Positions 1-38,765 are shown, numbered from the stretch's first letter. The stretch: 64,000 bases of DNA from an uncultured delta proteobacterium (GCA_963782055.1 CAWAIF010000003.1:2816001-2880000); one strand, 5' to 3'. Numbers and translations are program-made. The notes: generated by a model from the letters alone, not told the origin.

Positions 1-191
1 CGGTCCACCGCAAGGTTCACGAGCGGGGCGCCCTGGTCGTCGGTGCCCTCCACGCCCAGCGCGCGGAGCACGACGCGCTCCACGCCGACGGTGGTGTGGG
101 CATCGATGTAGCGCTGCACGTCGTCGGCCACCTCCGCCGCGAGCGCGCGGCACGAGGCGACCTTCTTCGCGTCGACGGGGACGGTGGCCAT
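1..191 (-). CDS. kamD: Lysine 5,6-aminomutase alpha subunit, 5' part (runs off window edge)
   Basis: Manual translation from ATG at 191: MATVPVDAKKVASCRALAAEVADDVQRYIDAHTTVGVERVVLRALGVEGTDDQGAPLVNLAVD. Matches the KamD N-terminal pattern (IxxHTTVxVERxxxRxLGxxG...PLxNxxVD). Absent from the ORF track because it is truncated. Confidence 0.8.
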   Translation of the reverse strand, partial: MATVPVDAKKVASCRALAAEVADDVQRYIDAHTTVGVERVVLRALGVEGTDDQGAPLVNLAVD

Positions 192-299
192 ACGAGGCTT
201 TTGCCACACGCGCGTGATCCGCGAAAGCCCGTTGCGGCCGGGCCGGAAGGCCGGGCGGCGCTGGCGTTGGCGATCGCGTCGCCCGGCCGGGCGGATCCG

Positions 300-30541: not shown

Positions 30542-31801
30542 TCACGCGACGGCCCGCTCGGCCACGATCTCCACCTTCACCACGCGTGTCTCGTCCGCCT
30601 CCCGCACGATGAACTTGAGGCCGTCGAGCTGCATCACGTCCCCGGTGCGGGGCACGTGCCCCGCCTGGTGCACCAGCAGTCCGCCCAGCGACTCGAAGTC
30701 GCCGTCGGCGGGGATGTCCCGCTTCAGGTACGCCGACAGGTCGGCGATGGAGACCGCGGCGTCGGCCAGGACGTGGCCATCCCCCACCTCCTCGATCTGC
30801 GTCTCGGTGTCGTACTCGTCGCGGATGTCGCCGACAATCTCCTCCAGGATGTCCTCCAGCGTGATGACGCCCGCCGTCCCGCCGAACTCGTCGGAGACGA
30901 TGGCGAGGTGGAGCCGGCGCGCGCGCATCTCCTTCAGGATGGTGGCGATGGTCTGCGACTCGGACACGAAGAGCACCGGCGTGCGGACCATGTCGAGCGC
31001 CTTGCCGCTGAGGGTGCCCTCGCGCACCTTGCGGAACAGGTCCTTGGCGTAGAGGAGGCCGACGATCTGATCGAGCTGCTCGCGGTAGACCGGGTAGCGG
31101 GAGTGGCCGTCGCTCGCCGCCAGCTCCAGCACGCGAGAGAGCGGCGTGCTCTGCTCGACGGCGGAGATCTTGCGCCGCGGGACCATGACCTCGCGCGCGG
31201 TGAGGTCGCTGAACTCCAGCGCGTTGCGGATGATCTGCGCGGGCTCGTTGGCGAGGGCGCCGGCGCGCTCGCCCTCGTTGACCAGCCACTCCACCTCCGT
31301 CTCGGTGATGCGGGCGTCGTGGGTGTGGCGCTTGGGGACATGGCGCTGGACGAAGCGGCCGAGCCACGCGAGGGGCGCGGCGACGGGCATGGTGGCGAGC
31401 TCCAGGGGGAGCAAGAAGCGCAGGGCGGCGGCGCCAATCTGCTCCGGGCGCTGGCGGCCGAGGGAGCCGAGCAGCTCGGCGAAGGTGCCGTAGGTCAGCA
31501 CGGCGCCCACCACCGCGAGCACCGGCCCCAGGCGTGGGTCGCTGCCCATCTGATTGGCGGCCTCGTCGAAGAGGGCGGCGGCGATGGCGATGGCCACGAC
31601 GCGACAGACCAGCCAGCGGGAGAGGATGCGCTCCGGGTCCTGCACGAAGCGCGCGAAGGCGGAGCCCTTCTCCTGCCCGAGCATCTGCAGGTGGGCCCCC
31701 GGCATGGACGTCAGCGCGCTATCTCCGGCCGCAAAGAGCGAACCCACGCCGGACGCGAGGACCGCGCCGGCTATCCAACCCACTGGCTCTCCTGGAATCA
31801 T
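30542..31801 (-). CDS. CNNM/hemolysin-family transporter (DUF21 + CBS pair + CorC/HlyC)
   Basis: SLFAAGDSALTS, AREVMVPR, GHSRYPVY, DEFGGTAGVITLEDILEEIVGDIRDEYD. Confidence 0.9.
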   Translation of the reverse strand: MIPGEPVGWIAGAVLASGVGSLFAAGDSALTSMPGAHLQMLGQEKGSAFARFVQDPERILSRWLVCRVVAIAIAAALFDEAANQMGSDPRLGPVLAVVGAVLTYGTFAELLGSLGRQRPEQIGAAALRFLLPLELATMPVAAPLAWLGRFVQRHVPKRHTHDARITETEVEWLVNEGERAGALANEPAQIIRNALEFSDLTAREVMVPRRKISAVEQSTPLSRVLELAASDGHSRYPVYREQLDQIVGLLYAKDLFRKVREGTLSGKALDMVRTPVLFVSESQTIATILKEMRARRLHLAIVSDEFGGTAGVITLEDILEEIVGDIRDEYDTETQIEEVGDGHVLADAAVSIADLSAYLKRDIPADGDFESLGGLLVHQAGHVPRTGDVMQLDGLKFIVREADETRVVKVEIVAERAVA

Positions 31802-31924
31802 CGTGACGGACGCAACCCCCAGAAACCTCAACCTAACCGACCGCCCCCCGTGGTCAAGGGAGGGTGGGGGCACCGAGCCCGGCGATTTCACGCAACTTAC
31901 CGGGATTGCGGCCGAAATGGGCTC

Positions 31925-32584
31925 ATGGCCGCCGCTCCCCCTCCCAGCCCGAACGCCCCTGCCAGGGCCCCGCACACCCCTCCGCCCGGCAAGCCGCAGG
32001 GCAAGAAGCTGCCGGCTCAGCCGTTCGCCGCGTGGATGGCGAAGCTGGGGCTGGGAGCGGGGATGGCGCAGGCCACTCCCCCGGTGGCGGTCCCCCACGC
32101 ACCGCCGCACGGCGCCCCCAAACCGCCGGGGCAACCGCAGCCTACAGCGCAGCCGCACGGGGCGAAGGACGACGAACCGCTCCTCGGGCGGCGTCACGAC
32201 CGCCGCGACGACGACCTGGATCCGCGCGCGCGGCACGCCGCGCAGCTCGCGCCTCCGGCGTACGTCACGCCGCTCGCGCAGCCCGCGCCCCCGCCACCGG
32301 CCGACGCGCCCGCCGCGGCGCAGGCGCACGCCTCGCTGGAGGAGCTGCTGCCCGCCCTGGTGCGTCGCGTGGCCTGGTCGGGGGACGGCAAGCGCGGCAC
32401 GGTGCGGATGGAGCTCGGCGCGGGCGAGCTCGCCGGAGCGACGCTGCTCGTGTCCTCCGACGCCGGCCGCGTGCGCGTGGAGCTGAACGCCCCGCCCGGC
32501 ACCGACGTCACCGCGTGGAAGGACCGGCTCCGCGCGCGGCTGGAGTCGCGCGGCCTGAGCATCGAGTCGCTCGAAGTGACCTGA
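31925..32584 (+). CDS. Pro-rich protein with a C-terminal FliK/YscP-like domain
   Basis: 'GTVRMELGAGELAGATLLVSSDAGRVRVEL...LRARLESRGLSIESLEV' resembles the Flg_hook/T3S4 domain. Confidence 0.6.
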   Translation: MAAAPPPSPNAPARAPHTPPPGKPQGKKLPAQPFAAWMAKLGLGAGMAQATPPVAVPHAPPHGAPKPPGQPQPTAQPHGAKDDEPLLGRRHDRRDDDLDPRARHAAQLAPPAYVTPLAQPAPPPPADAPAAAQAHASLEELLPALVRRVAWSGDGKRGTVRMELGAGELAGATLLVSSDAGRVRVELNAPPGTDVTAWKDRLRARLESRGLSIESLEVT

Positions 32585-32590
32585 GCCGGC

Positions 32591-33595
32591 CTACGCCTCG
32601 CCGAGGACGCGCAGGGCGTTGCCGCGAAGGATCTTGCCGATGACGCGCTCGGGGATGCCGGCCTCCAGCATCGCCGCGGTGAGGTGCGGCAGGCCGGTGG
32701 GATCGGCCAGCTCCCGCGTCGGGACGATGAAGCCGTCCCAGTCGCTGCCCAGCGCGGGGCAGTCCTCGCCCACCACGTGCAGGATGTGCTTCATGTGCTT
32801 GACGACCGGCTCCAGCCCGCCGCCGCCGAGGTAGCGCGGGCAGAAGATGACGCCCACGACGCCCCCGCGGTCCGCCACGGCGCGGAGCTGCTCGTCGTCG
32901 ATGTTGCGCCAGTGCTCGAAGGCGCCCAGCACGCCGGTGTGGCTGACGATGAGGGGCCTGGTGGCGATGGCGCACGCGTCCATGAAGCCCGGCTTGTTGA
33001 TGTGAGCGAGGTCGACGATGACGCCCAGCTCCTCGCAGCGCGCCACGACGTCGCGGCCGAAGGGGGTGAGTCCGAGATCGCGGCGGCCGCGGCCGTACGC
33101 GGGGTAGCCGACCTCGTTGGCCGTGAAGTGGAGCAGCCCGAGGTAGCGCAGGCCGCGGCGGCGCCAGCCGTCCAGGCGCCCGATGTCGCCCTCCAGCGCG
33201 TGCGCGCCCTCGACGCCGAGCAGGGCGCCGAGCGCGCCGTCGCGCTGCGCGGCCTCCAGCTCCTCGCGCGTGCGCACCAGGCGCAGGTCGTGGGTGTGAG
33301 AGAGGGTCTGCTCCATCACGTCCAGCTGCTCGTCGATGGCGCGCGCCAGGCCGCGCACGCGGCCGAGGATCGGCAGGCTCACCATGGTGAAGAACTGCGC
33401 CCCCATGCCGCCGTCACGCATGCGAGGGACATCGACGTGGCCGCCCAGCGCGGCGCGCGGCAGGGGCGGCGTGTGGCGGTTGAGCAGGTCGTAGCCGACG
33501 AAGCGCCCCCACATCAGCGTGTCGGCGTGGAGGTCGATCGAGGGGTAGCGCGCGTGGATCGCGAGCGCTTCGGGGGAGACATCGGTCTCGGCCAT
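32591..33595 (-). CDS. Membrane dipeptidase (peptidase M19)
   Basis: DLHADT, GVEGAH, IVDLAH, VSHT, RNIDDEQL, LGSDWDG, GNALRV. Confidence 0.92.
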   Translation of the reverse strand: MAETDVSPEALAIHARYPSIDLHADTLMWGRFVGYDLLNRHTPPLPRAALGGHVDVPRMRDGGMGAQFFTMVSLPILGRVRGLARAIDEQLDVMEQTLSHTHDLRLVRTREELEAAQRDGALGALLGVEGAHALEGDIGRLDGWRRRGLRYLGLLHFTANEVGYPAYGRGRRDLGLTPFGRDVVARCEELGVIVDLAHINKPGFMDACAIATRPLIVSHTGVLGAFEHWRNIDDEQLRAVADRGGVVGVIFCPRYLGGGGLEPVVKHMKHILHVVGEDCPALGSDWDGFIVPTRELADPTGLPHLTAAMLEAGIPERVIGKILRGNALRVLGEA

Positions 33596-33637
33596 CGCCG
33601 CGGAGCATAGCGCGCGTGTGTGCTAAGGTGCGGCTGC

Positions 33638-34606
33638 ATGGCAGCTCTGCCGCCCCCGATGGTCTGCGAGGACGTGCTCGAGCTCGTCGGCGGGACGCCG
33701 CTGGTGAAGGTCCGCACGCTGGGGCGGGAGGCGCCGCGGGCCGAGGTGTGGGCGAAGATGGAGCAGCAGAACCCCGGTGGCTCGCTGAAGGACCGCATCG
33801 CGGTGGCCATGCTGGACGCCGCCGCGGCCGACGGCCGCCTGCGTCCGGGGGGCGTCGTCATCGAGCCGACGAGCGGCAACACCGGCATCGGCCTGGCCAT
33901 CGCGTGCGCGGTGCGCGGCTACCGGTGCGTGCTGACGATGCCGGAGAGCATGAGCCTGGAGCGCCGGCAGCTTCTGGAGGCGCTGGGCGCCGAGCTCGTG
34001 CTCACCCCCCAGACCGAGCAGATGGAGGGCGCCGTCGCCCGGGCGCAGGCGCTCGCGGCGGAGACCGAGGGCGCCTTCATGCCGCACCAGTTCGAGAACC
34101 CGGAGAACCCGGGTGCGCACGCGCGCACGACGGCGTGGGAAATCCTGGAGTCCATGCGGGAGCTGTCGGTGGACGCGCTCGTCGCCGGCGTGGGGACCGG
34201 CGGCACCATCAGCGGGGTCGGCAAGACGCTGCGCGAGCAGCTGGGCGCGCGCGCGTCCGGCGGGCCCCTCGTCGTGGCGGTCGAGCCGGAGGCGTGCGCC
34301 ACGATCTCCCGCGGCGAGCGCGGCCCGTCCAAGATCCAGGGCCTGGCGGCCGGCTTCGTGCCCTCCAACTACCACCCTGACGTGGTGGACGGCGTGCGCA
34401 CCGTGAGCGACGAAGACGCGTGGCGCACCAAGGTGGCGCTCGCGCGCCGCGAGGGGCTGCTGGTCGGCATCAGCTCGGGGGCCGCCGTGCACGCGGCGCT
34501 CGGGGTGGCGCGGGAGCTCGGGCCCGGCAAGAACGTCGTCACCGTGCTCTGCGACACCGGCGAGCGCTACTTCAGCCTGGCGACGTTCTTCGCGGAGGTC
34601 GCGTGA
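33638..34606 (+). CDS. cysK: Cysteine synthase A
   Basis: [62 protein letters not shown]. Confidence 0.9.
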
Positions 34607-35322
34607 GCGAGCGCCGCGACGCGCGGGTGCTGGTGGTGGGCGTGGGCGGCCTGGGGTGCCCGGCCGCCACCGTGCTCGCGCGCGCCGGCGTTGGTTTGCT
34701 GCTGCTCTGCGACGACGACGTCGTGGAGGAGGCGAACCTGCACCGGCAGGTGCTCTTCGACGCCTCGAGCGTGGGCAAGCCCAAGCTGGAGGAGGCGAAG
34801 GCCGCGCTGGAGCGGCTGGCGCCCGGGACGCGGGTGGAGCTCGCCCGGACGCGCTTCGTGCCCGGCGTCGCGCTGGAGCTGCTGGAGAACGTCGACCTCG
34901 TCGTGGAGGGGGCCGACAATTTCGCGACCAAGTTCCTCGTGGCCGATGCGTGCGGGCTTGCATCGGTGCCTGTCGTGCACGCCGCCGCCATTCGCTGGAA
35001 CGGGACGGCGCTGGCGGTCGCGGCCAAGGGCCGGCCCTGCTACCGGTGCCTCTTCGAGGACATCCCCTTCGAGCAGCAGGCGAGCTGCGCGGAGGCGGGG
35101 GTGGTGGGGCCCATGGTGGGGGTCGTCGGCGCGGTGGCGGCGGACCTGGGGCTGCGGCTGCTGGACGGCGCCGCCGCCGGGACCCTCGTCACCTACGATG
35201 CCCGGACCGACCGCATGCGGCGGCGGGTGGTGCCGCCTCGCCGGGACTGCCCCCTCTGCGCCACTCGCCGCATCGAACGTATCGACGAAACGCGCTACGT
35301 TCGGGGCGACGCGAGCCCCTGA
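34603..35322 (+). CDS. HesA/MoeB/ThiF family adenylyltransferase (E1-like), N-terminally short
   Basis: GVGGLG, NLHRQ, DNF, CYRC, a Cys in SCAEAG, CPLC; GTG start overlaps the cysK stop. Confidence 0.9.
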
Positions 35323-35372
35323 GAGGGCCCTCGCGGACCTCCGAGAGAGAACGGAGCATCCAAGGAGCGATC

Positions 35373-35645
35373 ATGGAAACCATCGTGCGCATCCCCGCCC
35401 CCCTGCGGACCCTCACCGGCGGCAAGGACGAGGTGTCCGCGTCGGGCAAGACGGTCGGAGAGGTCATCGACGATCTGGAGACGAAGCACCCCGGCCTGAA
35501 GGACCGCCTGCTGGACGAGAAGGGCGTGCGGCGCTTCGTCAACATCTACGTGGGCGAGGAGGACGTGCGCTTCCTCGAGGGCCTCGCCACCGAGCTGCGC
35601 GCGGGCGATCAGCTCAGCATCGTGCCCGCCATCGCGGGGGGCTGA
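35373..35645 (+). CDS. Ubiquitin-like sulfur carrier (CysO/MoaD/ThiS family)
   Basis: VRIPAPLRTLTGG...RRFVNIYV..EDVRFL.GL.T...SIVPAIAGG C-terminus; AAGGAG RBS. Confidence 0.92.
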   Translation: METIVRIPAPLRTLTGGKDEVSASGKTVGEVIDDLETKHPGLKDRLLDEKGVRRFVNIYVGEEDVRFLEGLATELRAGDQLSIVPAIAGG

Positions 35646-35647
35646 GC

Positions 35648-36004
35648 GTGGCCGACCGTCACGCGCGCCAGATCCGCCTCGCCGAGGTGGGCGAGGAGGG
35701 GCAGGCGCGCCTCGAGCGGGCGAGCGCCCCCATCACCGAGCGTGGCGTCGCCGGCGAGACGATGGCGCGCTACCTGACCGCGGCGGGCATCGGTACGCTG
35801 ACCGTGGACGACGACACGCACGAGCAGGCCGTCCGGGCGATGAGCGATGCCACCGGCGTGGTGCGCGGCCCGGTGGGCGCGCCCGCGCCCGACGGCGACC
35901 TGGACGATCTCCACCCCGCCGCGCGCGACGTGGCCCGGGGCGCGCGCGGCGCGGTGCGGGTGCTGCGGCGGGTGTGGCTGCGCGAGGAGCCGAAGGGGTC
36001 TTGA
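35648..36004 (+). CDS. Small degenerate ThiF/MoeB-like protein (N-terminal Arg-finger segment, no catalytic motifs)
   Basis: VADRHARQIRLAEVGEEGQARL...ARYLTAAGIGTL; starts 2 nt after the carrier stop, and its stop overlaps the cysM start. Confidence 0.75.
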   Translation: MADRHARQIRLAEVGEEGQARLERASAPITERGVAGETMARYLTAAGIGTLTVDDDTHEQAVRAMSDATGVVRGPVGAPAPDGDLDDLHPAARDVARGARGAVRVLRRVWLREEPKGS

Positions 36005-36951
36005 GCGGAAGGACGGTCCGCGCCCGCCGCATCGAGTCGGTGGTCGACGCGGTGGGCAACACGCCGCTGGTGCGGCTCCGGCGGGTCGCGCCGGACGCGC
36101 GGGGCGTGTCCGTCTACGCCAAGCTGGAGTTCTGCAACCCCGGCGGGAGCGTGAAGGACCGCGCGGCGCTGCGCATGATCACCGACGCCATGGCCGACGG
36201 CCGCCTGCGCGAGGGCCGGACGCTCATCGACTCCACGAGCGGCAACACCGGCGTCGCCTACTCGCTCTTCGGAGCGGTGTTCGGGCTGAAGGTGCAGCTC
36301 GTGATGCCCTCCAACGTCTCCAGACCGCGCAAGGACATCGCGCGCGCCTTCGGCACCGAGATCGTCTTCTCCGACCCGATGGAGGGCTCGGACGGCGCCA
36401 TCCGGCAGGCGCGGGAGATCGTCGCGGGAGACCCGGGGCGGTACTTCTACCCGGACCAGTACGCCAACCCGTCCAACCCGCTCGCGCACTACGAGGGCAC
36501 CGGCGCGGAGCTGCTGGCCGCGCTGGGGGATCGCATCACCCACTTCGTGGCGGGGCTCGGGACGAGCGGCACGATGATGGGCACCGCTCGCCGGCTGCAC
36601 GAGCGCTCGCCGGCGATCCGGTGCGTGGCGGTCCAGCCGGCGGAGCCCATGCACGGGCTGGAGGGGCTCAAGCACATGGCCACCAGCCTGGTGCCCGCCA
36701 TCTACGACCCGTCGGTGCACGACGAGATCATGGAAGTGACCACCGAGGACGGCTGGGACATGGCCGACCGCCTCGCCGCAGAGGAAGGGCTGCACGTCGG
36801 GCACTCCTCCGGCGCCAACGTGTGGGCGGCGGTCCGCATCGCCGAGGGCCTCGCCGCCGCCGGGCGCGAAGGTTGCGTCGTAGCCGTGGTGGCCGACCGC
36901 GGCGACCGGTATTTCGCGCCGATGAAATGGGAAAGGCGCTACGTTTGGTGA
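36001..36951 (+). CDS. cysM: PLP-dependent cysteine synthase B-like enzyme (likely sulfur-carrier-dependent CysM)
   Basis: GNTPLV, NPGGSVKDRAA, STSGNTG, DQYANPSN, GLGTSGTMMG, LEGLK; lies between the carrier and JAB genes. Confidence 0.8.
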   Translation: MSGRTVRARRIESVVDAVGNTPLVRLRRVAPDARGVSVYAKLEFCNPGGSVKDRAALRMITDAMADGRLREGRTLIDSTSGNTGVAYSLFGAVFGLKVQLVMPSNVSRPRKDIARAFGTEIVFSDPMEGSDGAIRQAREIVAGDPGRYFYPDQYANPSNPLAHYEGTGAELLAALGDRITHFVAGLGTSGTMMGTARRLHERSPAIRCVAVQPAEPMHGLEGLKHMATSLVPAIYDPSVHDEIMEVTTEDGWDMADRLAAEEGLHVGHSSGANVWAAVRIAEGLAAAGREGCVVAVVADRGDRYFAPMKWERRYVW

Positions 36952-36957
36952 CCCGAA

Positions 36958-37479
36958 ATGCGTGACGTGGTCAAGCATCCGTGGGCGCGTGACGGCGTGA
37001 GGATGACGCGCGCGGTGGCCCAGCGCGTGGAGCAGGAGGCGATCGCCGCCTACGCGAAGGACGAGGAGAGCTGCGGCCTGCTCGTCGGCCCGTCCGCCGA
37101 CGCGCTCCTGGTCGACGCCACCGTCCCGATGCACAACCGCGCCAACAAGCTGCACGCGCTCGACCCGGAGACGTACCCGCGCACCGGCCGGATGTACTTC
37201 GACATCGACCCGCTCAAGTTCCAGAAGGCCATCGCCGCGGGCGAGGCGGAGGGACGCCCGGTGAAGGTGCTCTACCACTCGCACCTGGACGCGGGCGCTT
37301 ACTTCTCCGAGACGGACGCCGCGGCGACGACGATGGGCGGCGTCGAGCCCGCGTACGACCTGGCGTACCTGGTGACCAGCGTGCGCGAGGGCAAGGTCGA
37401 CGATCGCAAGCTCTTCGTGTGGGACCCGGACGCGCGCGCCTTCGCCCCTGCGCCGCTGGTGGTCGTGGACGCCCCGTGA
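36958..37479 (+). CDS. JAB/MPN metallopeptidase (Mec-like, M67)
   Basis: EESCGLL and YHSHLDAGAYFSETD (JAMM HxHx7Sx2D). Confidence 0.9.
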   Translation: MRDVVKHPWARDGVRMTRAVAQRVEQEAIAAYAKDEESCGLLVGPSADALLVDATVPMHNRANKLHALDPETYPRTGRMYFDIDPLKFQKAIAAGEAEGRPVKVLYHSHLDAGAYFSETDAAATTMGGVEPAYDLAYLVTSVREGKVDDRKLFVWDPDARAFAPAPLVVVDAP

Positions 37480-38765
37480 CGCGCCGGTCGCGAGCCGCCG
37501 GTGCCCTGGTGGTCGGCGTCGCGGCGTGCATGGCGGCGCCGGCGCGGGCGGACCTCCCCAATCTCGCCAATCTCGCCGGTCGCGTGGCGGAGGGATACCA
37601 GGCGGGGGGCGGGCGCGTGGTGACGCTGCCGGCGCGCTTCCTCTACGAGGACGAGACGGTCCCCGTCCGGGTGCCGCCCGCGCAGCAGGCGCGCTGCGTG
37701 ACGGTCGCGCTGGTGGCGGCGCGCGGGCTGTCCTTCCACGTCCACGCGGGCGCCGAGAACGACGACGACGACCAGGTTACCGGCCGCACGTCGAGCGTGG
37801 CCGGCGCGCTCGAGCTCGCGTCGTGCGACGGCCGTGGCTTCGGGCGGCTGCGCATCAAGAGCGACGCAGGCCGCGGCGCCCTCGAGGTGGTGGTGGCGTA
37901 CTCGGACAAGCCGATGCCGGCGCTCCGGTCGCTGCTGCCCGAGCGCGTCGGCGGCCCGGTGCCGCCCGCGATCGACCCCGGGGCGCTGCCTCCCGCCGTC
38001 TCGCCCGAGAAGCGCGCGGAGTCGCTCGAGGCGCGCACCCGCGACGCGGGCGGCACGGTGCTGCCGCGCGGCGCGGCCGTCTCCAACGGCGAGGGCGCCG
38101 GCATCGTGCGCGTGACGCTGGAGCCGGGCTGCCACCGCATCGGGTTCTTCTCCACGGCCGTCGTGGAGGGGAAGCGCAAGGTGCGGCTGGACGTCGACGC
38201 CGACCTGCGCGACGAGCAGGACGACACGGTGCTCGCGCGCGATCGCGGCGAGGCCTCCGACGCGCACCTGGACGCGTGCGTCGGCGCGCGCACGGTGGCG
38301 CTGGCGAGCTGGAGCGGCGCCGCCCCCGGCGCGAGCATCCTGGTGGCGCGGGGGTACTGGCCGCTGCCGGAGAAGCTGCCGCGCGTGTGGGGTCCGGCCG
38401 CGCGCGCGCGCATGGCCTCCGCGCTGCGCGCCCACGGCCTTCGCGGCCCGCGGGAGACGCCGGTGGCGCTCTACGAGGGCGTCGCCGGCGAGACGCTGCT
38501 GGGCGTCCCGTTGGAGGCGGGGGCGTGTTTCGTCGGCGTCGTCGCCGTCACGCGCGGGACACCCCACGGGATGATGCTGCGCGCCGAGGTGGGCGGTCGC
38601 GTCTCGGCCGACGACCGCGGCACGTCCGCGGGCGCAGCCCTGGTCGCCTTCTGCACCCGCGATCACGCGCTCGCCCACGTCACGGTGGACGCGCGCGGCG
38701 CCTCGCTGGCGTGGGGGCTGGCGCTCTACCGCGTGGCGCGCGGGGCGTGGGAGGAGGGGCCGTGA
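37476..38765 (+). CDS. Secreted hypothetical protein with 3 repeated two-Cys beta domains
   Basis: Signal peptide (ARA-D); GTGA overlap with the JAB gene; internal repeats. Confidence 0.7.
   Translation: MTRRSRAAGALVVGVAACMAAPARADLPNLANLAGRVAEGYQAGGGRVVTLPARFLYEDETVPVRVPPAQQARCVTVALVAARGLSFHVHAGAENDDDDQVTGRTSSVAGALELASCDGRGFGRLRIKSDAGRGALEVVVAYSDKPMPALRSLLPERVGGPVPPAIDPGALPPAVSPEKRAESLEARTRDAGGTVLPRGAAVSNGEGAGIVRVTLEPGCHRIGFFSTAVVEGKRKVRLDVDADLRDEQDDTVLARDRGEASDAHLDACVGARTVALASWSGAAPGASILVARGYWPLPEKLPRVWGPAARARMASALRAHGLRGPRETPVALYEGVAGETLLGVPLEAGACFVGVVAVTRGTPHGMMLRAEVGGRVSADDRGTSAGAALVAFCTRDHALAHVTVDARGASLAWGLALYRVARGAWEEGP

Follow-up and report, generated by a model that had tools for sequence, protein, structure and literature searches.

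A short MoeB and a small degenerate paralogue as a candidate two-gene E1-like enzyme in a bacterial sulfur-carrier operon

Every ubiquitin-like pathway begins with an E1 enzyme. In the eukaryotic heterodimers SAE1–SAE2 and NAE1–UBA3, the inactive subunit supplies the arginine finger, and the locus described here bears on how the symmetric bacterial MoeB/ThiF homodimer became an asymmetric E1 of this kind, in which only one half is active. The locus lies in a stretch of 64,000 nucleotides from an uncultured delta proteobacterium (GCA_963782055.1, CAWAIF010000003.1:2816001-2880000; ‘the window’), in which a MoeB-like gene lacks the N-terminal segment typical of MoeB and a separate gene of the same operon opens with that segment. 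Are the two genes halves of a single enzyme? An initial annotation of the DNA had proposed, from the reciprocal losses, an active-plus-inactive E1 heterodimer. Co-occurrence across genomes, rates of non-synonymous and synonymous change (dN/dS) and prediction of the complex lend computational support to this proposal.

Two genes that share out an adenylation domain

The operon contains the following features (coordinates are those of the window; all are on the + strand).

33620..34606, +, cysK-like PLP enzyme that opens the operon; start uncertain, GTG at 33620 or ATG at 33638
34603..35322, +, MoeB-short, N-terminally truncated ThiF/MoeB adenylation domain, 239 aa, proposed active subunit
34639..34656, +, GVGGLG, Gly-rich nucleotide loop of MoeB-short, residues 13–18, from the sequence
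34735..34749, +, NLHRQ, ATP-phosphate-binding motif of MoeB-short, residues 45–49, from the sequence
35373..35645, +, ThiS/MoaD/SAMP-like sulfur-carrier protein, 90 aa, GG at the C-terminal end
35648..36004, +, small subunit, putative mini inactive adenylation domain, 118 aa, GTG start
35657..35671, +, R4-H-A-R7-Q8 motif in the small subunit, with R7 as putative arginine finger in trans
35915..35980, +, C-terminal helix of the small subunit, residues 90–111, motif PAARDVAxGAxxAL; helix from the AF2 model
36001..36951, +, cysM-like PLP enzyme; TTG start overlaps the stop of the 118-aa gene (TTGA)
36958..37479, +, JAMM/MPN+ (Prok-JAB) metalloprotease, Mec+-like; Pfam Prok-JAB 42.8 bits, cut-off of 25

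The cysK-like gene matches Pfam PALP (257 bits) and NCBIfam cysK TIGR01139 (362 bits, over the cut-off of 351), and the carrier matches Pfam ThiS (65.3 bits) and NCBIfam SAMP1 (62.3 bits, over the cut-off of 60). The cysM-like gene scores 213.9 bits against Pfam PALP; its top NCBIfam match, cysM TIGR01138, reaches 336.5 bits, under the cut-off of 394. The translation of the metalloprotease carries the HSHLDAGAYFSETD motif. The operon thus combines a carrier of the ThiS/MoaD type ending in GG, a cysteine-synthase paralogue, a JAB protease and an E1-like gene, the gene set of operon type 4c of Iyer 2006. By Pfam, the operon has no E2-like gene, and an Rfam scan of 32000–38000 gave no riboswitch or other RNA family. 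The only other ThiF gene of the genome encodes a 406-aa rhodanese–MoeB and is located elsewhere. Among 93 related loci, the six-gene order seen here recurs in 54, with the cysK-like gene kept at the same position in 54; 12 have an operon type made up of the short E1, the carrier, the small gene and the JAMM gene, and 6 have only the short E1 and the small gene. The pair formed by MoeB-short and the small gene is the constant core of at least three operon types among these loci.

MoeB-short belongs to the ThiF family (Pfam PF00899, 200.7 bits; cut-off of 28.1). Its match runs from 19 to 237 of the 238 profile positions, and the N-terminal helices with the R-Y-x-R-Q arginine finger are absent: only 7 residues precede the first Rossmann strand (RVLVVG), in agreement with the initial annotation. 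The frame does not supply the missing part further upstream; extension to 34420 contains no RxxRQ and, as had been claimed, runs into the 3′ end of cysK, which is read in another frame (the GTG start at 34603 itself overlaps the cysK stop, as GTGA). None of the 120 closest homologues of MoeB-short has an N-terminal RxxRQ motif. All motifs listed as retained are present in the translation: GVGGLG, NLHRQ, DNF (residues 105–107), the two CxxC pairs CYRC (146–149) and CPLC (216–219), and SCAEAG (161–166) with its Cys. Among 80 homologues the invariant positions include G13, G15, G16 and G18 of the Gly loop, N45, L46, R48 and Q49 of NLHRQ, K61, DNF, CYRC, CPLC and C162. We take these to be, in function, the Gly loop, the Arg of NLxRQ, the downstream Lys, the catalytic Asp, the zinc-binding CxxC pairs and the crossover-loop Cys. 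By Pfam, MoeB-short consists of the ThiF domain alone, with no rhodanese domain, and neither it nor the small protein has a catalytic-Cys domain, a UFD or any other extra domain.

The 118-aa protein, encoded 2 nt past the stop codon of the carrier, begins with RHARQIRLAEVGEEGQARL, the very segment that MoeB-short lacks. Its Pfam ThiF match is confined to profile positions 1–53 and scores 27.4 bits, just under the cut-off of 28.1; the ThiF-profile content of the two proteins is complementary. At the position of the Gly loop the small protein has ERGVAG instead of GxGGxG, and NLxRQ, the catalytic Asp motif and Cys are all absent from it, so that the earlier description of a degenerate domain stands. 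All of its NCBIfam matches are far under their cut-offs; the top model common to both proteins, NF006444, is matched at 147–372 by MoeB-short and at 126–182 by the small protein. Judged by motif content, separate genes encode one competent and one incompetent adenylation domain whose parts complement each other, as in heterodimeric E1s.

A profile search of 1.84 billion representatives returned 457 matches to the small protein at E ≤ 1e-10, and 146 of the best 150 of these 457 are 82–145 aa long. The small protein is therefore a member of a real, conserved family with at least 150 representatives. R7, Y42 and G98 are invariant in 104 aligned members, and 12 further columns (R4, Q8, A99, A102 and L103 among them) reach at least 90% conservation in the same sequences; the middle segment (about residues 55–88) is missing in many members. 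If the N terminus aligns without gaps, R7 is the counterpart of E. coli MoeB R14 and ThiF R11, the arginine fingers that we presume to be the second Arg of R-Y-x-R-Q. Genes of this family currently carry the label ‘hypothetical’ or the mistaken one ‘adenylyltransferase’.

The small protein is modelled by AF2 with a pLDDT of 90.3 and a pTM of 0.83, as N-terminal R-x-x-R-Q/G-x-x-G-Q helices, a three-strand Rossmann remnant and a C-terminal interface helix. VIA-align superposes 111–115 of the 118 residues on Uba4, TcdA, MoeB and ThiF (Z of 9.5–11.6, with Uba4 at the top, Z 11.6). Residues 1..114 of the model fall on 8..217 of MoeB 1jwa_B (Z 9.7, 113 residues, rmsd 2.9) and residues 1..115 on 5..215 of ThiF 1zud, and inactive E1 subunits or domains (APPBP1, SAE1, the IAD of Uba1 and bacterial BilD, 8tz0_A 3..171) align at Z 8.2–8.9. 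As modelled, the small protein is an internally deleted E1 adenylation domain that covers part of that domain. Profile comparison (hhalign) of the small family with MoeB-short aligned only the Gly loop and the following helix and strand (small 33–59 to MoeB-short 15–41, probability 79%) and gave no alignment of the C-terminal helix; the equivalence of this helix is drawn from motif spacing, the ranges of the structural alignments and the symmetry of the predicted contacts.

Co-occurrence, selection and natural fusions

If the two proteins complete one another, the small gene should be found with truncated MoeB, as the initial annotation had proposed to check. We collected 80 loci, each from the genome of a different species, on MoeB similarity alone, using the MoeB-short alignment; the co-occurrence test is thus independent of the small gene. 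MoeB is short in all 80, and a gene of the small family lies downstream on the same strand in 76, the other four contigs ending within 272 nt, although the compared genomes are kin, so that these counts overstate the number of independent observations. The reverse search agrees: of the 30 best loci for the small-gene profile in a 401-genome sample of the phylum, 20 hold stand-alone small genes, 9 are the N-terminal parts of full-length MoeB proteins, and the remaining one (L053) is probably a further stand-alone gene. A visibly short MoeB adjoins 19 of the 20 stand-alone genes, and at the twentieth (L030) the N terminus of MoeB is cut by the edge of the locus; a full-length MoeB beside a stand-alone small gene was never seen among these 30 loci. 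Because the pattern recurs in every related locus examined, it is far beyond chance. Within the genus, the small gene lies about 270–290 nt past MoeB-short in four genomes; in another the contig ends before its position, and in a further one (85% complete) it was not found. At least one of the loci with the operon belongs to a cultured strain, in the record of Labilithrix luteola DSM 27648 (L133).

The small gene is under purifying selection, with a median dN/dS of 0.22 (range of 0.16–0.37) in 15 close pairs that form about four clusters and are not independent. In the same pairs dN/dS is 0.12 for MoeB-short and 0.06 for the carrier, and the small gene undergoes non-synonymous change 2–3 times faster than MoeB-short. 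Estimates over all 902 locus pairs were dropped owing to synonymous saturation in GC-rich DNA, which brings even MoeB-short near 1 in distant pairs.

The start and stop codons of the small gene are coupled to those of its neighbours; the commonest distance from the carrier stop to the small-gene start, −4 nt (25 of 89 loci), points to translational coupling. MoeB-short and the small protein also occur as a natural fusion, a single 379-aa ORF (L033; cluster P0285, 5 members), which is rare (one cluster, 1 of 120 among the matches listed). In a cluster of three members (P0105), the small protein is fused to the JAMM protease instead.

The predicted complex and its alternatives

In structure prediction, MoeB-short with the small protein gave an ipSAE of 0.91 in three runs, compared with 0.00 for the best of three controls, a result to be read with the warning, issued by the tool itself, that the predictor may recall solved MoeB/ThiF homodimers, the small protein being a MoeB fragment. 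That ipSAE mark is reached by 116 of 157 solved complexes and by 2 of 215 mismatched pairs. The runs share at least 98% of their contacts, with a partner pLDDT of at least 88. The predicted interface takes in residues 3–8 of the small protein and residues 43–48 of MoeB-short (the NLHRQ motif), and the C-terminal helix of the small subunit, which has the lowest-error contacts, is predicted to run antiparallel on MoeB-short helix 170–181. Twelve of the 15 columns that are at least 90% conserved fall within the predicted interface of 40 residues (hypergeometric P = 1.3e-4). Of the 25 contacts predicted with the lowest error, 15 are matched in that list by their two-fold mate, and for the other 10 both mate residues lie within the interface; this pseudo-two-fold pattern is that of a canonical E1-like dimer and may reflect likeness to solved homodimers. 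The site predicted for the small protein is the place of the second protomer in the MoeB homodimer.

The explanation that we consider probable is that the operon carries out cysteine synthesis through a protein-thiocarboxylate carrier, in the manner of CysO/CysM/Mec+, with an E1-like enzyme made from two gene products, one active and one a degenerate paralogue. MoeB-short would be the active adenylation subunit, with the ATP site, zinc site and crossover-loop Cys kept and two N-terminal helices lost. The small protein would contribute those helices with the invariant R7, a three-strand Rossmann remnant that would not bind nucleotide and a dimer-interface helix. It would replace the second protomer of a MoeB/ThiF-type dimer, laying its N-terminal helix and Arg in trans over the ATP site of MoeB-short, and the outcome would be an asymmetric dimer with one active site. 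There the carrier encoded alongside would be adenylated on its C-terminal Gly-Gly, in preparation for thiocarboxylation; cysteine would then be built on the carrier by CysM and freed by the JAMM protease. Here we assume that the operon chemistry follows the cysteine route of M. tuberculosis CysO/CysM/Mec+, and the pathway is proposed by that analogy. We would likewise expect R7 to be catalytic and the stoichiometry to be 1:1. The pair is likely to have arisen when a full-length (rhodanese-)MoeB was duplicated and the two copies underwent complementary losses. This would not be a simple gene fission, since the first strand–helix–strand unit is retained in both products.

The same data could be read in other ways, one of which we regard as unlikely: MoeB-short would be a self-sufficient homodimeric adenylyltransferase, and the small protein a regulator that competes for the dimer interface, acting as a decoy protomer to titrate carrier activation or switch it off, or to pass the loaded carrier to CysM. 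The predicted binding site is indeed the canonical dimer interface, which MoeB-short could use with itself, and the small gene evolves faster than the enzyme. PMC13139853 reports, moreover, that the arginine fingers MoeB R14 and ThiF R11 are not essential and that E. coli TcdA has none. As E1-like enzymes can work without this Arg, MoeB-short might be active alone; equally, the main contribution of the small subunit may be the dimer interface rather than the Arg. It would, however, be unexpected for a regulator to retain precisely what is missing from its target, with R7 unchanged across 104 sequences, and the absence of the N-terminal helices from all 120 closest MoeB-short homologues better fits an obligate complement. 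Translational coupling in one operon and fusion in one lineage suggest equal stoichiometry, not titration.

It is a little less probable again that MoeB-short forms the usual homodimer and that two small proteins dock outside it to give only the missing N-terminal helices, as in complementation by fragments of a split protein. Such a heterotetramer would account for the missing segment being the best-conserved part of the small protein, but not for its retention of the interface helix (G98, A99, A102 and L103) and of the helix after the Gly loop (Y42, L43, A46 and G47): both are predicted to pack two-fold on the equivalent helices of MoeB-short, on surfaces that would already be occupied in a homodimer, and the small protein can be superposed over its full length on a single E1 domain. 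That the small ORF is the decaying residue of a MoeB duplication, or a spurious gene call in GC-rich DNA, and has no function is very improbable and already contradicted by the conservation data. Its loss of catalytic motifs, variable middle-segment length and Pfam score just below threshold are what decay might leave, but a remnant would hardly persist in 76 of 80 loci (the other four being cut by contig ends) at a dN/dS of 0.16–0.37, with invariant residues within a confident fold (pLDDT 90) and start and stop codons coupled to those of its neighbours.

Comparison with known systems

We found no description of a split or heterodimeric bacterial sulfur-carrier E1 in the openly licensed PMC and bioRxiv literature that was searched. 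The same gene set, an E1-like enzyme with a ThiS/MoaD-like carrier, a JAB/JAMM protease and a cysteine synthase, makes up the operon type 4c that Iyer, Burroughs and Aravind described in 2006 (PMC1779556, Table 1) and is shared with the CysO–CysM–Mec+ system of M. tuberculosis, in which MoeZR sulfurates CysO (PMC3227635). In those operons one full-length chain, joined to a rhodanese domain, forms the E1, whereas here the E1 has neither rhodanese nor the N-terminal helix and there is an extra small gene. The words ‘truncated’ and ‘heterodimer’ do not occur in the 2006 paper (PMC1779556).

MoeB-short shares its fold and catalytic motifs with the E1-like enzymes of E. coli MoeB–MoaD (PDB 1jw9/1jwa) and ThiF–ThiS (1zud), on whose chains the small protein superposes at Z 9.5–9.7. 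In those enzymes one full-length chain forms a symmetric homodimer that has two active sites, and the Arg of the partner’s N-terminal helix reaches the ATP site in trans (PMC13139853). Here two different gene products carry the N-terminal helix and the catalytic core, so that a dimer can have only one active site. Complementary losses in a ThiF-like heterodimer are also found in yeast Tcd1–Tcd2, the ct6A dehydratase, in which one paralogue lends an arginine finger to the other (same source); however, both of these subunits are full-size domains, the system is eukaryotic and its substrate is tRNA t6A, not a ubiquitin-like carrier.

BilD of the BilABCD antiviral system also joins an inactive and an active adenylation domain as a pseudo-dimer, with Arg9 coming from the inactive domain; according to the 2023 structural paper that describes it (PMC10557695), all other known bacterial E1-like proteins are homodimers. 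The small protein aligns to residues 3..171 of BilD (PDB 8tz0) at Z 8.3. BilD differs in being one chain, ordered IAD–AAD, with a CYS domain and an E2 as its partner in protein conjugation. The pair described here is encoded by two genes (or, in one lineage, by a fusion with the opposite order, AAD–IAD), its inactive part is far smaller and its context is presumably sulfur transfer.

The arrangement resembles SAE1–SAE2 (SUMO) and NAE1/APPBP1–UBA3 (NEDD8), in which active and inactive adenylation subunits come from separate genes and the Arg of eukaryotic E1s is supplied by the inactive subunit (PMC10557695). The small protein aligns to the APPBP1 and SAE1 chains at Z 8.3–8.9, but their inactive subunits have 310–530 aa and those of the present family about 80–150 aa. 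In the bacterial pair there is no catalytic-Cys domain, UFD or E2, and a sulfur carrier encoded in a metabolic operon is the putative substrate; the likeness to a heterodimeric E1 would lie in the adenylation step, and the enzyme falls outside the canonical conjugation E1s. An origin independent of the eukaryotic heterodimers is probable. With a slight leaning in its favour, we suggest that bacteria evolved, separately from eukaryotes, an obligate asymmetric E1 that is completed by a minimal inactive adenylation domain of roughly 100 residues, comprising only a trans-acting N-terminal Arg helix and a two-fold interface.

A widespread two-gene bacterial E1 with so small an inactive partner would be a natural experiment on the indispensable parts of the inactive half, and a tractable one—all of the proteins are small and probably soluble, and the substrate carrier is encoded alongside. 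The labels of the small genes are also a practical matter for annotation. If the proposal is true, several hundred myxobacterial species would carry the pair, which would represent the smallest functional form of an IAD, and the step from homodimer to heterodimer that is thought to mark the origin of eukaryotic E1s would have happened repeatedly in sulfur-carrier metabolism.

The sulfur-carrier operon and its short MoeB

Six closely packed genes on the + strand of the window (33620-37479) form an operon:

33620-34606, +: cysK-like PLP enzyme
34603-35322, +: MoeB-short, a ThiF/MoeB-family protein of 239 amino acids, the proposed active subunit
35373-35645, +: ThiS/SAMP-like carrier of 90 amino acids with a C-terminal GG
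35648-36004, +: ORF of the small protein, 118 amino acids, the proposed inactive partner
36001-36951, +: cysM-like PLP enzyme
36958-37479, +: JAMM/Prok-JAB protease

The cysK and MoeB-short genes meet at GTGA and the small and cysM genes at TTGA, and a 2-nt gap separates the carrier from the small gene. Iyer et al. 2006 (PMC1779556) described the same gene set as operon type 4c, a sulfur-carrier cysteine operon. In the M. tuberculosis counterpart, the E1-like MoeZR sulfurates the carrier, CysO (PMC3227635). The two cysteine-synthase paralogues (33620-34606 and 36001-36951) are ~40% identical to one another; the product of the former passes the NCBIfam cut-off for CysK, and that of the latter is nearest to CysM, below the CysM cut-off.

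Upstream lie a divergent gene for a Peptidase_M19 membrane dipeptidase (32591-33595, -) and one for a putative divalent-cation transporter with CNNM, CBS and CorC_HlyC domains (30542-32329, -), which is unrelated to the split E1. Peptidase_M19 also adjoins a reduced Rrf2-MoeB-short-small locus in another genome, G029 (L022:4292-5299, -), and these neighbours may reflect a link to Cys-Gly or glutathione turnover. In G029 an Rrf2-family iron/redox-responsive regulator (L022:5319-5831, +) precedes the pair, no carrier, cysM or JAMM gene adjoins it, and two large ORFs without Pfam matches lie downstream. A 448-amino-acid ORF 3' of the JAMM gene (37419-38765, +) has a signal-peptide-like start and no Pfam match. 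Its relatives share an open frame with the small gene in some genomes (L026, L086); the resulting called protein of 539 amino acids (P0037), with a mid-chain hydrophobic segment, is a putative fusion or, alternatively, two genes without a stop between them.

All motifs listed in the initial annotation are present in the translations. MoeB-short lacks the N-terminal segment, as claimed there: its Pfam ThiF match spans profile positions 19-237 (200.7 bits). The upstream frame is indeed taken by cysK, which the in-frame start at 34420 overlaps in another frame, with no RxxRQ motif. We rejected 34420-34602 (+, MoeB-short frame) as a coding extension; it is an alternative frame of the conserved cysK 3' end. 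The peptide of this open frame looks conserved across loci and could mislead gene callers to longer MoeB models. The sole other ThiF-family gene in the window's own genome (G000:C3:6156609-6157829, equal to L136:1081-2301, outside the window) encodes 406 amino acids, an N-terminal rhodanese followed by a full-length MoeB with the N-terminal motif (R-Y-S-R-H ... G-E-A-G-Q). This protein is likely to be the housekeeping E1 of the genome and is similar to what was probably the ancestor of the split pair. MoeB-short (model positions 147-372) and the small protein (model positions 126-182) share the same best NCBIfam model, NF006444, of the rhodanese-MoeB type.

Fold and conservation of the small protein

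The small protein begins like ThiF, as initially annotated: its Pfam ThiF match is confined to profile positions 1-53 and scores 27.4 bits, slightly below the cut-off of 28.1. It has a degenerate Gly loop and neither NLxRQ nor any Cys, again as first read, and there is no catalytic Asp; the content of the small protein and that of MoeB-short are complementary. Its AlphaFold2 model (pLDDT 90.3, pTM 0.83) has two helices at its N-terminus, followed by a strand-helix-strand-helix-strand unit and then a long C-terminal helix (90-111). Foldseek returned ThiF and MoeB as best matches. In VIA-align, 111-115 of the 118 residues superpose on E1-like adenylation domains, with Z scores of 11.6 for Uba4, 9.7 for MoeB (1jwa_B, chain range 8..217), 9.5 for ThiF (chain range 5..215) and 8.2-8.9 for the inactive halves APPBP1, SAE1, the Uba1 IAD and bacterial BilD (8tz0_A 3..171). 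Because of this extensive superposition, the model identifies the small protein as an E1 adenylation domain with its catalytic middle deleted. If the N-terminus aligns ungapped, R7, the second Arg of its R-x-x-R-Q motif (R4-H-A-R7-Q8), would correspond to MoeB R14 and ThiF R11, which PMC13139853 describes as trans arginine fingers.

The small protein belongs to a real, conserved family. An initial search gave 8 homologues. When 1.84 billion representatives were searched with a profile, 457 proteins matched at E<=1e-10; of the 150 best, 146 match end to end and are 82-145 amino acids long. R7, Y42 and G98 do not vary among 104 aligned members, and conservation is at least 90% at R4, Q8, L11, G15, G18, Q19, L43, A46, G47, A99, A102 and L103; the middle (~residues 55-88) is variable and missing from many members. 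Source annotations read 'hypothetical' or 'adenylyltransferase', and profile scans of Pfam and NCBIfam found no dedicated model for the family.

Co-occurrence and natural fusions of the pair

The 120 closest MoeB-short homologues (57-69% identity) start 2-39 residues ahead of the Gly loop, and the N-terminal motif was found in none of them (0/120). Scanning one genome for each of 185,579 species with MoeB-short patterns yielded 513 relatives, of which the best 80 loci were kept. MoeB is short in all 80, and the proposed co-occurrence is borne out in 76, where the small gene lies downstream on the same strand, usually ~300 nt from MoeB-short and immediately 3' of the carrier; the remaining 4 have at most 272 nt of downstream DNA. 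Conversely, the top 30 small-profile loci in a phylum sample of 401 genomes comprise 20 stand-alone small genes, 9 N-termini of full-length MoeB/MoeZ genes and 1 probable stand-alone gene (L053). A visibly short MoeB adjoins 19 of the 20, and in the twentieth (L030) the MoeB N-terminus is cut by the locus edge. No stand-alone copy lies next to a full-length MoeB in these 30 loci.

The pair persists across operon types: 54 of 93 loci have the six-gene form, 12 lack the PLP enzymes (short E1, carrier, small gene and JAMM) and 6 have the short E1 and small gene alone. The commonest spacing from carrier stop to small start is -4 nt (25/89 loci). Within the window's genus, the pair is present in G001, G002, G005 and G006; the contig of G003 ends too early to show it, and it was not found in G004 (85% complete).

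In genome G071 the two genes form one continuous ORF of 379 amino acids, active then inactive, joined via a Pro/Ser/Gly-rich linker (L033:1495-2631, -). Such a fusion is also a called protein cluster (P0285, 5 members), the sole one among 120 proteins listed. Two further fusions join the small protein to the JAMM protease (P0105, 278 amino acids, 3 cluster members) and MoeB-short to the ThiS-like carrier (P0203, 316 amino acids). One source labels P0105 'proteasome lid subunit RPN8/RPN11'. The L033 fusion lacks the crossover-loop Cys, and the Gly loop of its small part (GAGPGS) is less degenerate.

Predicted heterodimer, alternatives and known systems

Given an own alignment for each protein, structure prediction returned the proposed heterodimer with an ipSAE of 0.91 in three runs, the best of 3 controls scoring 0.00; 116 of 157 solved complexes attained the ipSAE mark used, as did 2 of 215 mismatched pairs. 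At least 98% of contacts are common to the runs, with a partner pLDDT of at least 88. As MoeB and ThiF homodimer structures are solved, the high score may partly be the predictor's memory. The predicted interface involves the post-Gly-loop helix (20-29), the NLHRQ segment (43-48) and the crossover Cys with the next helix (162-184) of MoeB-short, and residues 3-8 (R-x-x-R-Q motif), 38-47 and 88-107 of the small protein. For the symmetry check, residue x of the small protein was equated with MoeB-short x-18 in the first helix (backed by hhalign) and x+78 in the C-terminal helix (from motif spacing). Under this mapping, the list of the 25 lowest-error contacts also includes the two-fold mates of 15 of its members, and for the other 10 both mate residues lie within the predicted interface; the small protein is therefore predicted to sit exactly at the second-protomer position of a symmetric MoeB dimer. 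The 40-residue interface contains 12 of the 15 most conserved small-protein columns (P = 1.3e-4).

We propose an asymmetric E1-like dimer with a single active site. MoeB-short would bind ATP and the carrier C-terminus; the small protein would provide the partner half, and its N-terminal helix would place R7 above the phosphates of ATP. Complementary content, conservation and co-occurrence are observed directly and the geometry is a prediction; a catalytic role for R7, the stoichiometry and the chemistry downstream are what we infer. As the chief caveat, the MoeB and ThiF fingers are reported to be non-essential, and TcdA to be without one (PMC13139853), so the interface rather than the Arg may be the indispensable contribution. 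The small protein could instead regulate a self-sufficient MoeB-short homodimer as a decoy protomer, which we consider improbable; slightly less probable still is a 2:2 complex with complementation of the helices alone. That the small ORF is a non-functional remnant is very hard to credit: the proposed dN/dS check gave 0.16-0.37 (median 0.22) for the small gene in 15 close locus pairs, which are not independent because they fall into ~four clusters, more distant pairs being saturated and unusable. The same pairs gave 0.12 for MoeB-short and 0.06 for the carrier. The split-E1 reading of the initial annotation is supported in silico.

All known bacterial E1-like proteins other than BilD form homodimers, according to PMC10557695, and our literature search, with subscription papers outside its reach, turned up no account of a split bacterial sulfur-carrier E1. 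The arrangement is directly testable. The closest known systems are homodimeric MoeB and ThiF, heterodimeric SAE1-SAE2 and NAE1-UBA3, yeast Tcd1-Tcd2, and BilD, a single chain of inactive (IAD) and active (AAD) domains in which Arg9 comes from the IAD.
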